Positions 43,049-49,666 of a stretch of DNA of 51,651 nucleotides are shown here, piece after piece. The stretch is from Basidiobolus ranarum (Eukaryota), in contig JASJQH010000015.1 in assembly GCA_040143965.1 (NCBI GenBank), positions 1 through 51,651 of the forward strand, in the 5' to 3' direction. Both the position numbers and the translations under genes were made by a program. The notes below the pieces were generated by a model. It did no database searches and had not been told where the DNA came from. It saw only the letters and a program-made list of their open reading frames with translations. Every line of letters starts with the position of its first letter. Position 1 is the stretch's first letter.

Positions 43049-44709
43049 TCATCTTGCTTCCAATTTGCCTCCACTCCGATGAGCTTGTGCGGCCAAGATA
43101 GTATCATCCGGACTGGGCGAGTTAAACTTGAATGGTGTGACCGATCGTGGTAAAAGTTCTGATTGCATTGAGTAAAAGAACTTGTGATCTTTCTCATTTG
43201 GTTGCAACTCTGCTAAATCTTGGTCAAGCCGTTCAAACACCGAAATAGCAAACACTGAGGGAGGTGCAATTAAGTTGGAATTTTGAAGGGGAGTATCGAG
43301 AGGGGTAACGGGAGCCGGTGAAGGCTGGTCAGGTGGATTGGGTAGCATGTACGTACTCGGCAGATCACGATTATTTATGTGAGGAATATTGGATGGTTTC
43401 TTTTCTGTTTTTGAAGCTTGCTCTGATTTTACAAGGGGTGATAGAAGACTCAGACGTGAAGATGATTGCAGCTTGACCGGCTCTGCTTTGCTTAGATTTG
43501 ACTTTAGTTGGGATTTTTTCGAAGATTCCTCGTTGCTTAACGATAGATTCGACAAAGCAGATAGTGCACTGGTGATAATGTTAGTATGTGTGTGGTCTTT
43601 GTTACCATCACGACTAATCTTCCCACTTAAATCACTTAATGAGATCGGACCATTGTGTTTGGAGCCGGTGGAAAGTGGGCGTTGTAGTGATTGTAGCCCA
43701 GTAAGCCCGTTAACTTTGTTCTTAGAGAGAGACGAAGGCAATGGTGACAAAGCTTTGACATTGGGATTAATACCAATTTGATTAGAAATATTGAAGGTCG
43801 AATTGGATTTTGCGGAATATCTATCTTGATTTAAACTGGATTTAGAGAGAGTACTAGAGCTCAAAGGGGCGAGAGGCTTCCCACTTCCCAGAATAGAGGT
43901 TGAGATGGATTTGTTCGTAGTTGAACTAATGGAGTTTGATGCTAAGGAAAGTCGAGAAGTTATGTCGCCTAGAGTTAATTTACTCGATGATTCAGTAGAT
44001 TTACCAATGCTTTGTTTGCTAAGAGCATTTGGTTTGATTAATGAGTTCGTTTGAGTATCGACTAAAGGTGTATCCTTTGATGATAAAGTTTCTTTTGTTA
44101 AGGTTGGAGAGTGAACTTTCGAGAGGCTATTTAAGCCCAGTTTAATGGAACTTGCACTTGCAGAATTTAATCCATCTAAAAAGATAAATTAGCCGGTGGA
44201 AAATCTTCAATGTAATGGGGTATTCACCTTGACTACGTGAAGTGCTAGTATCTGAATCACGCTTATATTTCTCTAAACACATTAAAATTAGTAAAGTAAA
44301 TAAAGGGGGATGTAGTTACACTTCTTACCTCTTAAATAATTTACAGTCTGGTCTACATCGAAATAGTAATACCATAGCGTATCCTCAATCACTTCTTTGC
44401 TTATACCATCAATGTCTCCCAAAATCTCCTCCACCTTTTTTACTCCTTCTATCAATTGACCTAAAAAACGCAAGTTTAATCTACTTGTTCAGTTGAAAAT
44501 TCTAGAGAATATTTTTTAGAGAACCTTTCTGTTCCTCCGTTAATTCTTCTTCATATTCCTCAAACTGATCTGGCTCTAAGTTTAAAGCAGTTTAATCAAA
44601 AACAAGTCCAGATTAGATCCTTATATTGACAGTAGAATAATAGTTCTACTGGATCCTAGAAGATATATGTACCGCTTTCCAGTTGTTCACCGTCATAAGG
44701 TGTCGTCAT
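43049..44709 (-). CDS. SKI7: Ski7/HBS1LV3-like exosome adaptor without GTPase domain, about 463 aa; exons 44709-44673, 44575-44525, 44460-44329, 44272-44228, 44175-43049
   Basis: HBS1 N-terminal domain (IEDTLWYYYFDVDQTVNYL), long Ser-rich linker, then APPSVFAISV, KFFYSMQ and PFKFNSPSPDDTILAAQ shortly before the stop; all introns GT-AG and in frame. Exon 1 is the least certain. Confidence 0.8.
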
Positions 44710-45015
44710 TCTGTGTCAATCTTCTCAGGAAGTAAAGTCTAAAAATTATGTTTAAACCGGGAGCCCCATTAAATTTAAGGTCAATTTGAATGATGTCACA
44801 GATATTGGTTAGCGGATTAAAATATGCTTACATACTTGAGTTTAGTCTGAATCTAAAACTGCTAGAAATCCAAATAATCCGATCCGATTATGGGGATCAC
44901 GATGTTCGTATTGGCCATTATTGTCAAATCCTTCCTACATTAACAATGCCATAAGTTTTATTCTAGCTAAGCTAAGCCAAGCTAACTCAAGAGTTGCTTA
45001 AGTGTGACTACCAAC
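44710..45015. promoter_or_regulatory. Probable bidirectional promoter between the Ski7-like gene and DIS3L
   Basis: Only 306 bp between the divergent ATGs; contains an ATTGG (reverse CCAAT) and an AGCTA-like pentamer run near 44965-44985. Confidence 0.55.
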
Positions 45016-48000: not shown

Positions 48001-49666
48001 TGAGGTGAAATTTAAATTCTCCGAGGGTGACGGAATTGCCGATATTCATATCCTTTTCACCACATAGTAGTTGTGATCTTATCCATCATTCATATTTATA
48101 TCCTTGACCCAGTAGCACTTCCCAAAGAGCCTCTAGAAGTTCATAAGATTGTCGAAGAGGCTATGATCCTTGCCAATAATTCCGTAGCCAAGAAGATATT
48201 TAGTACATTCAAGCATTCAGCTATGCTAAGAAGACATCCACCCCCAGTCGAAAGCCACTTTCGTCTGTTGAAGAAAGCGGCTGAAACAAGGGTAAGGGAT
48301 ATGCAGAATGAAGAGGTGTTCATGGATGGGAACTGACTATTTAACAGGGTTTGAAAATAGATACCTCAAGTAATGCTACCTTGGCAATATCCTTACAGGT
48401 GGCTCAAAAGAATCAACAGGACAAAGATTTCATCATTATGCTGAAGACCATGGCCACTATGGCGATGCAAGAGGCCGGGTGAGTATTTGATTATCAATCG
48501 TTTATGCAACTGTACCACTAAATCAACATTCTTGAATGCAGTTACATCTCTTCCGGGTCGTATGACATTACCGACTTCTATCACTTTGGCCTAGCTCTTG
48601 ATTTCTATACCCATTTCACTGTTAGACCAATGCTTCTGATTCTATTTCACACGAATATGCACTTATCCCCCTTTCTTTAGTCACCGATCCGTAGATACGC
48701 CGATCTGGTCGTCCATCGACAATTACTCGCTTCATTAGCGACTACAAAGACCAATTTCCCTCACAACTCAGTCGTAGACAGTAATAGTAGACTGAATGAA
48801 GTGGCAATCCATCTTAACTCCAAATCTCGGGAGGCTAAGTTTGCTTCAAAAGTATGTATATTAGTGTCAATACATTCCCACACGAAAACTTACCTCGTGC
48901 CAATGTTAGGATTCAGTCGAGCTGTTCCAGAGTCTCTATGTTATGCAGAAGGTAAGCTTATGAAAAGTAAAACGCATAACTATAGGTTCTAACCATTCTA
49001 CAGTCTAAAGCTGGCCCAATCTTGGAAAAGGGAATCATCAGTGAGATTCGTGATAATGGATTCTTTGTGTTCGTTCCAAGGTAAGTTTCTTTGAGAGGCT
49101 ATTACTATCCAAAGACTGTTGTACTAACCAGCATATATAGGTTCGGCATCAAAGGCCCCGTTTACTTGAAGGATAAAGAAGGACGTAATATTGTACCTCA
49201 GTCTCTGATCTCTGGTCTCCCCTCAGATGGTAATATCGAATTACTTATTGAATATATATTCTTTCTAACACCATGTCTAGATTCCACATATCTTCCTCGT
49301 TGTAACGTTGACTCTGACTCGACACGTATCTCAGTGGACATCGTAGATTCCTCCAAGACCATTCATTTCAACATCTTTGATCATGTTCAGGTCTGCTTGA
49401 AACTACACGAGTCTCGTGCACATCGACACACTGTTTATATGACCTTGGTTGGATTACTTAGTAATCATCAAGACAAACCAGTTCGAAAGTTAAATGATCA
49501 AGAACTTATGAGTGCTATCATAGATGGTGAGAAAAAAGGGCAGATCACTCACGAACCAGCTATTTCCAAAGATTCCAATGAAGCACAATTTCAACAAACT
49601 ACTAATAGTGTCTATGATCTTCTGGAATCATTTCATAATCTATCAACTGTAGAATTAAGAAATTGA
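45016..49666 (+). CDS. DIS3L: DIS3-like exoribonuclease 1 (RNase II/RNB family, degenerate PIN), about 20 or more introns
   Basis: [15 protein letters not shown]-like [20 protein letters not shown] catalytic [49 protein letters not shown]1 VPRFGIKG. Confidence 0.88.
48048..48118 (+). other. U12-type (minor spliceosome) AT-AC intron in DIS3L
   Basis: 5' site ATATCCTTT, branch TCCTTGAC at 48101-48108, 3' site CAC; removal restores ...[14 protein letters not shown]; the unspliced frame hits TAG. Confidence 0.9.

Follow-up and report, generated by a model that had tools for sequence, protein, structure and literature searches.

In the human cytoplasmic exosome the nuclease DIS3L and the adaptor SKI7 both bind Exo9, and the structural account of this complex, in the part drawn on here, reports no direct contact between the two (PMC11540850). 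According to the same account, an extra C-terminal domain of DIS3L binds Exo9, inserting between the RNase PH ring and the RRP45 tail, an element which is ordered only in the human cytoplasmic complex; this domain is described as one of two features that set DIS3L apart from DIS3 (PMC11540850). Human SKI7 is described as contacting the RRP43/MTR3 cleft through residues 555-572, the space between RRP43 and the RRP45 tail through residues 582-593, CSL4 through residues 602-616 and SKI2 through residues 617-632 (PMC11540850), a layout of C-terminal motifs for SKI7/HBS1L3 that is also set out in PMC5389692. The SKI7-like motif has been formulated as RxxxFxxxL, with the metazoan consensus A+PShFAahL, and a Patch 4-like motif (PF[DK]FxxxSPDD[IV]V..) is reported to occur in all SKI7 proteins (PMC6143672). 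In fungi, separate SKI7 genes and GTPase-less products have already been described: the yeast genes are traced to an ancestral SKI7/HBS1 gene that was duplicated and whose alternative splicing was lost, the Ski7 proteins of Schizosaccharomyces pombe and Saccharomyces cerevisiae are described as having lost the N-terminal exon or exons, with a GTPase-like domain retained in S. cerevisiae, and a short GTPase-less Ski7-like protein with Ski7 N-terminal features has been proposed for Cryptococcus neoformans and Ustilago maydis (PMC3597508). The S. cerevisiae Ski7-exosome structures described in PMC10659929 use Dis3/Rrp44, and Dis3L1 has been stated to be metazoan only (Ballou et al., 2020; PMC8097288). 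Here we describe a 51,651-b contig of the fungus Basidiobolus ranarum (the window, by which we mean the whole stretch of DNA analysed), on which the genes for a predicted DIS3L1 nuclease and a predicted stand-alone SKI7-like adaptor lie head to head.

The locus consists of two ordinary, intact protein-coding genes that are divergently transcribed, and we consider it probable that both are functional, that they encode the DIS3L1 nuclease and the SKI7 bridge of a cytoplasmic exosome of ancestral opisthokont type, and that they happen to be neighbours in Basidiobolus. The adaptor gene, K7432_000797 (P0003, KAK9768522.1, 463 aa), occupies 43049..44709 on the minus strand in five exons (44673-44709, 44525-44575, 44329-44460, 44228-44272 and 43049-44175), and the nuclease gene, K7432_000798 (P0001, KAK9768523.1, 1051 aa), occupies 45016..49666 on the plus strand in 26 exons, with introns of 51-73 nt. 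Both models were re-derived from the DNA by spliced mapping, which reproduced P0003, and the joined coding sequence of K7432_000798 translates exactly to P0001; searches with two of the window's exons returned both proteins at 100% identity. The start codons, at 44709-44707 on the minus strand and at 45016 on the plus strand, enclose a spacer of 306 bp and 36% GC (44710..45015), and the divergence from this interval recorded in a first-pass annotation of the contig, together with the gene ends, is thereby confirmed to the base. An in-frame TGA lies three codons 5' of the adaptor ATG, and the start codons of both proteins are credible because the N-termini align with those of relatives from the first residues. 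The public nuclease model can likewise be taken as right in the PIN region, since its alignment to human DIS3L runs the full length.

On sequence grounds, K7432_000798 is an ortholog of DIS3L1 rather than of DIS3 or DIS3L2. Pfam assigns to P0001 the domains RNB (PF00773, E=1.5e-93; residues 477-816, encoded at 47100..48737 on the plus strand), CSD1, CSD2 and S1, and finds no PIN family match at E<=0.1. In phmmer searches of the PDB, P0001 aligns with human DIS3L over almost its entire length (751.7 bits, residues 5-1050 on 8-1051), and scores lower against human DIS3 (528.6 bits), yeast Dis3 (491) and DIS3L2 (308). A profile built from 14 fungal homologs preserves this order (DIS3L 1049, human DIS3 788, yeast Dis3 711 and DIS3L2 484 bits), and its positions 914-1060 are aligned by DIS3L only, the DIS3 alignment stopping at 913; the alignments of P0001 itself to DIS3 end near residue 924. 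What follows is a DIS3L-specific C-terminal domain beyond S1 (residues 947-1050; 49349..49660, plus strand), located by a PDB search with the last exon of the nuclease alone, for which the single significant match is the C-terminus of human DIS3L (residues 941-1051, E=0.0015) in an alignment that extends to the very end.

The other feature that distinguishes DIS3L is a compromised PIN site. In P0001 a PIN-like pseudonuclease domain can be traced through the DIS3 and DIS3L alignments over approximately residues 55-175 (45240..45853, plus strand, with bounds taken from the human DIS3L alignment). When its tetrad is aligned to that of human DIS3, D63 is kept, the glutamate is replaced by G91, the next aspartate by W141 and the last by E166; the two middle positions, which are A and T in human DIS3L, are thus the same two that are lost in P0001. 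An intact D-E-D-D tetrad, as expected of canonical DIS3/Rrp44, is not found in P0001, where the first Asp alone is retained. The first-pass annotation had proposed an RNB nuclease with a decayed PIN domain, and specifically DIS3L; both proposals hold, given that P0001 and human DIS3L have lost the same PIN positions, the lack of a Pfam PIN match, the gap between the DIS3L score and those of DIS3 and DIS3L2, and the presence of the C-terminal domain.

These characters are shared widely. Residue columns were counted in 118 named rows (85 fungal, 33 metazoan) of the best 120 matches to P0001. The PIN Glu column is non-acidic in every non-gapped row of the 85 fungal and 33 metazoan sequences; the third PIN column, occupied by Asp in DIS3, holds W in 74/85 fungal rows and T or S in 28/33 metazoan rows, and the fourth holds E in 76/85 and 29/33, respectively. 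Three N-terminal cysteines of P0001, C32, C37 and C42 (45171..45203, plus strand, located from the column counts), go by the name of the 'CR3 motif'. All three are kept in 61-63 of the 85 fungal rows, the others being gapped, and in all 33 metazoan rows, such that they are present wherever the N-terminus has been modelled. The four RNB aspartates are kept in 84-85 of 85 fungal rows and in 33/33 metazoan rows; in P0001 all four are present in the active site (residues 490-499, placed by alignment columns), which is encoded at 47196-47286 on the plus strand and is split by intron 13, in keeping with the catalytic signature DPxxxxDIDD described for RNB enzymes (PMC8097288).

The distribution of such sequences bears directly on the origin of the nuclease. 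The best 120 of 1263 matches to P0001 comprise 85 fungal and 33 metazoan sequences and 2 without a name, with no canonical DIS3 among them; the metazoan matches are mostly named DIS3-like exonuclease 1 and are 39-42% identical to P0001. The fungal matches in this set include Basidiobolus, Calcarisporiella, Umbelopsis and many Mucorales and Mortierellaceae, as well as Endogone, Jimgerdemannia, Dispira, Dimargaris, Coemansia and Neocallimastix, and the UniProt label 'DIS3-like exonuclease 1' is already attached to many of them. In the literature searched, supplements and subscription journals being outside its scope, no earlier account of a fungal DIS3L1 was found and only PMC8097288 pairs 'DIS3L' with 'early-diverging fungi'; its metazoan-only statement is in conflict with the 85 fungal DIS3L1-like sequences, in which alignment shows the same PIN losses and the C-terminal domain of DIS3L. 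The occurrence of DIS3L1 in Basidiobolus, Mucoromycota, Kickxellomycotina and Neocallimastix would thus correct a printed statement. By the same measure, the first-pass description of an animal-like cytoplasmic exosome in a fungus was too narrow, DIS3L1 being common in Mucoromycota, Kickxellomycotina and Neocallimastix.

An unrooted quick IQ-TREE of 37 DIS3L1-like rows, picked from the 120 to span taxa with 83 left out, separates 22 fungal rows from 13 metazoan ones by a single branch (SH-like approximate likelihood ratio test, SH-aLRT, 100), with a taxonomy-like order within each. So clean a split between fungi and metazoa fits vertical descent and speaks against recent transfer from animals. 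By scores and shared characters the nuclease does not group with canonical Dis3/Rrp44 or Dis3L2, the tree being unrooted and made of DIS3L1-like rows alone. If this history is correct, then the division between a nuclear DIS3 exosome and a cytoplasmic DIS3L1 exosome would predate the divergence of fungi and animals, with loss in Dikarya.

It might be argued that the nuclease is instead the sole exosome-bound RNB enzyme of B. ranarum, serving the nucleus too, in which case the term 'cytoplasm-specific' would be inapplicable. In favour of this, no canonical DIS3 of B. ranarum appears among the best 120 of 1263 matches. However, all tests point to orthology with DIS3L1, which animals have alongside DIS3, and it would be unusual for an organism to lose nuclear DIS3, an essential protein that also supplies an endonuclease. 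We therefore regard a sole nuclease of this kind as very unlikely, and retain the reading of K7432_000798 as one member of an ancestral cytoplasmic pair.

The second gene, K7432_000797, is predicted to encode a stand-alone Ski7/HBS1LV3-like adaptor without a GTPase. HBS1_N is the only Pfam domain in P0003 (PF08938, E=5e-17; 62.5 bits against a cut-off of 26.4), with residues 11-78 encoded at 44259..44679 on the minus strand, introns included, and the N-terminus aligns to that of S. pombe Hbs1 (3mca, E=2.1e-9). The translational GTPase domain that follows the N-terminal domain in the ribosome-rescue GTPase Hbs1 is lacking from P0003, which has neither a Pfam GTPase match nor a G1 motif. The middle of the protein is long, of low complexity and rich in Ser, Thr and Lys; the ESM Atlas model of the whole protein has a pLDDT of 0.43, and the Atlas search yielded no usable feature match for the C-terminus, all structural rows being below 0.5 in template modelling (TM) score. 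Matches of P0003 to an adenovirus fiber knob and to a glycogen debranching enzyme in phmmer searches of the PDB (E>0.05) were rejected as low-complexity noise. The ortholog in Basidiobolus meristosporus (P0004) is about 41-48% identical to P0003 overall, with sharply conserved blocks and a diverging middle; over the last ~85 residues the two proteins match at E=1e-30, and both Basidiobolus genes keep an open frame.

It is the C-terminus that ties P0003 to SKI7. A SKI7-like motif, APPSVFAISVF (residues 392-402; 43235..43267, minus strand), was placed by alignment to human HBS1L isoform 2 (9g8m_E), and its APPSVFAISV fits A.PS.FA.., including the 'metazoan' proline at position 3, with the final L replaced by V. 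A Patch 4-like motif with its following helix, PFKFNSPSPDDTILAAQ (residues 436-452; 43085..43135, minus strand), includes PFKFNSPSPDD; its counterparts in the alignments are PFDFKSASPDDIVKANQ (human SKI7) and FNRPSPDDIIQSAQ (yeast Ski7). It is followed by 11 residues to the stop. When the C-terminal 97 aa alone are searched against 177,635 PDB sequences, the one match is 'Isoform 2 of HBS1-like protein' (E=0.34), which is the chain that represents SKI7 in structures of the human cytoplasmic exosome, and three motifs are collinear with it, in the pairings APPSVFAIS/ARPSAFAST, KFFYSMQ/TFLYSRQ and TPFKFNSPSPDDTILAAQ/TPFDFKSASPDDIVKANQ. With HBS1_N at one end, this collinear arrangement at the other and no GTPase, the first-pass identification of a Ski7/HBS1LV3-like adaptor is upheld.

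Searches with a profile reached considerably further. A two-species profile was searched against 1.84 billion representatives, and the 150 best matches inspected include dozens of GTPase-less proteins, ~300-450 aa long, that begin with HBS1_N and end in a ..F..PSPDD[IV]VLAAQ.. tail. Twelve relatives, in which the C-terminal match spans most of the query, were aligned with the two Basidiobolus proteins. In these 14 stand-alone Ski7-like proteins A392, S395, F439, P442-D446, A451 and Q452 are invariant, and P394, F397 and A398 are nearly so. Searched against the PDB, the 14-protein profile matches the N-terminus of S. pombe Hbs1 (1.8e-22), human HBS1L isoform 2/SKI7 across both motifs (9.7e-6) and four yeast Ski7 chains (E 0.004-0.023), such that all 6 profile matches at E<=1 are Hbs1 or Ski7 proteins. 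As a candidate for a region that would bind SKI3 of the SKI2-3-8 complex, a block of the family profile, GGLLGG...SKLQxLAAARKKK, aligns with the start of yeast Ski7N; the Basidiobolus version of it (GLTGLQS...ISLSDL) is weak, and no SKI3-binding stretch could be recognised with confidence in P0003. From these correspondences P0003 would make the same contacts with the exosome and SKI2 as human SKI7.

The wider family (P0127-P0266) can be described as proteins of ~300-450 aa with HBS1_N, GGLLGG...SKLQxLAAARKKK, A.PSAFA..LF, a tail of the form F..PSPDD[IV]VLAAQAKGS and no GTPase; named members come from Apophysomyces, Coemansia furcata, C. erecta, Exidia and Ceratobasidium, and many are unnamed metagenome or Logan records. 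Within the middle of P0003, two blocks at residues ~152-166 and ~285-297 (window ~43680-43985), SSKL.L.DITSRLSL and H.NII.SALSALS, are strongly conserved between the two Basidiobolus species, and have no clear counterpart in the other fungi of the 14-protein alignment. These blocks may be SKI3- or ribosome-binding elements.

Viewed without its relatives, the adaptor gene could pass for a decaying, truncated duplicate of HBS1, an N-terminal domain followed by junk and devoid of Ski7 function, given the mostly low-complexity sequence, the low Atlas pLDDT and the solitary Pfam domain. Yet decay sits poorly with a frame that is open in both species, and with a C-terminus that is held constant while the middle diverges. 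Moreover, the residues which define SKI7 in animals, plants and yeast are invariant in the 14 relatives, and known SKI7 adaptors are themselves described as mostly disordered with short binding helices (PMC10659929). We find a decayed duplicate highly implausible, and prefer to regard K7432_000797 as a functional SKI7 gene.

This gene also appears to stand on its own. Beyond the adaptor stop (43049) the next long open reading frame (ORF) is on the opposite, plus strand and ends at 42876, 172 bp away; it has no Pfam match and lies downstream of same-strand topoisomerase II-like ORFs (DNA_gyraseB, Toprim, 38110-39291). None of the minus-strand ORFs below the adaptor stop is of GTPase character. 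As opposite-strand ORFs reach to within 172 bp of the stop, there is no room for GTPase exons, and the human arrangement, in which one gene yields HBS1 and SKI7 by splicing, cannot apply at this locus. Elsewhere among fungi both architectures are represented: long proteins (860-1005 aa) in which a GTPase follows the Ski7 motifs occur in Gigaspora, Rhizophagus, Actinomortierella ambigua, Coemansia and Spiromyces, and annotated short forms in Actinomortierella wolfii, Apophysomyces, Exidia, Ceratobasidium and Panaeolus, those of the last three genera being GTPase-less Ski7-like proteins of 296-682 aa. The Basidiobolus adaptor is accordingly a further member of a known SKI7 family and not a new kind of protein; its significance lies in a hard-wired, GTPase-less fungal SKI7 gene, an architecture which humans reach through alternative splicing.

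Whether the proximity of the two genes carries meaning is a separate matter. The B. meristosporus orthologs have consecutive accessions (ORX87083.1 and ORX87084.1) and are both on a 58,029-b contig, so that adjacency extends to this species; it is read from accessions and contig, the orientation being seen in B. ranarum. Adjacency of SKI7 and DIS3L1 is thus kept in 2/2 Basidiobolus species. Outside the genus, the contig sizes given in the protein index place the pair on the same contig in 0/3 Mucoromycota species: in Apophysomyces sp. BC1015 SKI7/HBS1 is on a 67,664-b contig and DIS3L1 on one of 15,472 b, in Actinomortierella wolfii they are on contigs of 24,099 and 47,977 b and of 240,637 b, respectively, and in A. 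ambigua SKI7/HBS1 is on a 30,981-b contig and DIS3L1 on contigs of 111,629, 48,256 and 79,771 b. Coemansia was left out of this comparison, its records of the two genes coming from different strains. The synteny search proposed with the first-pass annotation therefore has a divided outcome, the linkage recurring in B. meristosporus and in none of these three species, and adjacency looks to be confined to the genus. When metagenomes were scanned with the fungal DIS3L1 alignment, 80 loci were recovered at 28-42% identity; no close DIS3L1 was among them, and they were uninformative on synteny. Their low identity suggests RNB enzymes of bacteria or distant eukaryotic members of the DIS3 family, and when 11 Ski7/Hbs1 proteins were searched against them by tblastn, the only matches were weak ones to the GTPase part of the three queries that have a GTPase, with neither HBS1_N nor a Ski7 motif.

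The spacer itself invites a regulatory interpretation. A distance of 306 bp from one start codon to the other obliges the promoters to overlap, and on the predicted gene models this interval must contain both 5' untranslated regions and both core promoters; Rfam finds no family at gathering score in window 42500-50000. Some shared regulation of the pair is plausible. A stronger proposal holds that the pair is a selected, co-regulated cytoplasmic-exosome module on one bidirectional promoter, through which adaptor and nuclease are made in step. Beyond the enforced promoter overlap, this draws on the persistence of the adjacency in B. meristosporus despite the divergence of the adaptor, and on a possible reason for matched dosage, in that the human DIS3L C-terminal domain and SKI7 are both described as touching the RRP45 tail (PMC11540850). 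Against it, the two genes share equal-sized contigs in none of the three other DIS3L1-bearing species, and the DIS3L1 proteins of the two Basidiobolus species differ in the tree by only ~0.2 substitutions per site, so that the common order may be undisturbed synteny and retained gene order is weak evidence of selection. Further, divergent pairs with short spacers look common in this gene-dense window, as illustrated by a Brr2-like/DsbA-like pair at ~18.8-19.3 kb with a spacer of about half a kilobase or less by ORF estimate, and human DIS3L and HBS1L are on different chromosomes. We consider co-regulation of this selected kind unlikely.

Chance must also be reckoned with. For a pre-named pair, and assuming ~10^4 genes, adjacency by chance would have a frequency of about 2 in 10^4; the pair was noticed post hoc among all neighbouring pairs of a very large survey, and some such cases are thus to be expected. 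The adjacency may be no more than chance, and the linkage is best described as a genus-level adjacency of unproven function. No prior description of SKI7-DIS3L1 linkage was found in the literature searched, within the scope given above. A more elaborate history, in which the cytoplasmic exosome of the fungal-animal ancestor possessed SKI7 and a dedicated, PIN-dead DIS3L1 with an RRP45-clamping C-terminal domain, Dikarya lost DIS3L1 secondarily, and the pair was captured in Basidiobolus as a dosage-matching bidirectional unit, is in our estimation decidedly unlikely; if true, it would be the first case of exosome cofactors forming a co-regulated gene pair. The pairing would matter only if expression were coupled, and would otherwise be a genus-level curiosity.

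We thus return to two functional genes of an ancestral cytoplasmic exosome that happen to be adjacent. On this account K7432_000798 would act as an RNB 3'-5' exoribonuclease, its PIN domain reduced to a purely structural anchor, and its C-terminal domain matches the wedge domain of human DIS3L described above. K7432_000797, with its HBS1_N head, long and largely disordered Ser-rich middle and ~90 C-terminal residues carrying the binding motifs, presents these in the order of human SKI7/HBS1L3, namely the RRP43/MTR3 helix, a second patch, the CSL4 patch (Patch 4) and a SKI2-touching helix, and may thereby connect the exosome that contains DIS3L1 with the helicase complex SKI2-3-8. This pair of factors, for all its 'metazoan-type' appearance, would have been inherited from the fungal-animal ancestor and retained in early-diverging fungi, and the adjacency would have arisen in, or survive only in, the Basidiobolus lineage. 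The binding partners, the cytoplasmic role and the ancestry of both proteins are in this sense predictions from protein sequence.

Several observations weigh against this account. The tree contains no canonical DIS3, and the monophyly of fungal and metazoan DIS3L1 relative to DIS3 accordingly depends on score gaps and shared characters. The match of the adaptor C-terminus to human SKI7 is not significant alone (E=0.34) and is so only as a family profile, and the basic residue of RxxxFxxxL is a proline in the Basidiobolus adaptor. Finally, non-adjacency outside the genus was judged from contig sizes in a protein index, in which the entries for the two Actinomortierella species possibly mix assemblies.

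Other features of the DIS3L1 gene and of the contig deserve brief mention. Intron 18 of the nuclease gene (48048..48118, plus strand) is a 71-nt AT-AC intron of the U12 type, with ATATCCTTTT at its 5' end and a branch-site-like box, TCCTTGAC, just 5' of its 3' AC; the 24 other introns are all GT-AG. P0001 could be reconstituted from the DNA only if AT-AC introns were allowed, mapping otherwise stopping at residue 669. The B. meristosporus DIS3L1 model (P0002, ORX87083.1) lacks the exon 2 residues that comprise the three cysteines and the start of the PIN domain (window 45148-45272), and also lacks 17 residues around the AT-AC intron (window 47960-48130). Both gaps are probably annotation errors, the second due to the minor intron, and not real differences between the species. 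Directly after the DIS3L1 stop lie pieces of a Ty1/copia-like retroelement with broken frames (49879-51127, plus strand), in which the Pol beta-barrel and gag-pre-integrase domains are above Pfam cut-offs and the integrase-core and SH3-like domains below; an ORF at the contig end (51350-51649, minus strand) has no Pfam match and is provisionally taken for a pol C-terminus. Positions 10062-42876 of the window contain ordinary housekeeping genes, for a tubulin, a Brr2/SNRNP200-like helicase, a DsbA-like protein, a DEAD-box helicase, an eIF2B-family subunit and topoisomerase II, and Pfam searches of the ORFs there revealed no exosome-related genes.

Set beside the known systems, the nuclease most closely resembles human DIS3L (DIS3-like exonuclease 1; 9g8m/9g8n), with which P0001 is collinear over its full length, sharing the order of domains, the three N-terminal cysteines, the loss of the same two PIN catalytic positions, the RNB DPxxxxDIDD and the extra C-terminal domain. 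It differs from the human protein in having W, the usual fungal state, and not T at the third PIN position, and its gene has 25 short introns, of which one is U12-type. Canonical Dis3/Rrp44 and DIS3L2 have the RNB, CSD and S1 core in common with P0001, and both score far lower: in Dis3, unlike P0001, the PIN tetrad is intact and the DIS3L C-terminal domain is absent, and DIS3L2 structures match P0001 from residue ~240 onward only, and not in the N-terminal PIN-like part, DIS3L2 not being known to have a PIN domain.

The adaptor is closest to human SKI7, that is, HBS1L isoform 3/V3 (9g8m chain E), in combining HBS1_N with a disordered middle and no GTPase, and in carrying the RRP43/MTR3 helix motif, the second patch, Patch 4 (PFxFxSxSPDD) and a terminal helix in the same order at the end of the protein. 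Unlike human SKI7, P0003 is the product of its own gene and not of alternative HBS1L splicing, is 463 aa long as opposed to 632, and has proline in place of the arginine of RxxxFxxxL. In having a separate SKI7 gene, and a Patch 4 that aligns with theirs, Basidiobolus resembles S. pombe (SPAP8A3.05) and S. cerevisiae; P0003 departs from both yeast Ski7 proteins in keeping HBS1_N, and from that of S. cerevisiae in being without a GTPase. The exosomes of both yeasts use Dis3/Rrp44, and neither yeast is known to have DIS3L1. The short Ski7-like proteins of basidiomycetes come from a gene that is known or thought to encode Hbs1 as well, whereas no GTPase exons are possible past the stop of P0003. 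With its own GTPase-less SKI7 gene, Basidiobolus could offer a simple genetic model, outside animals, of the SKI7-DIS3L1 exosome.

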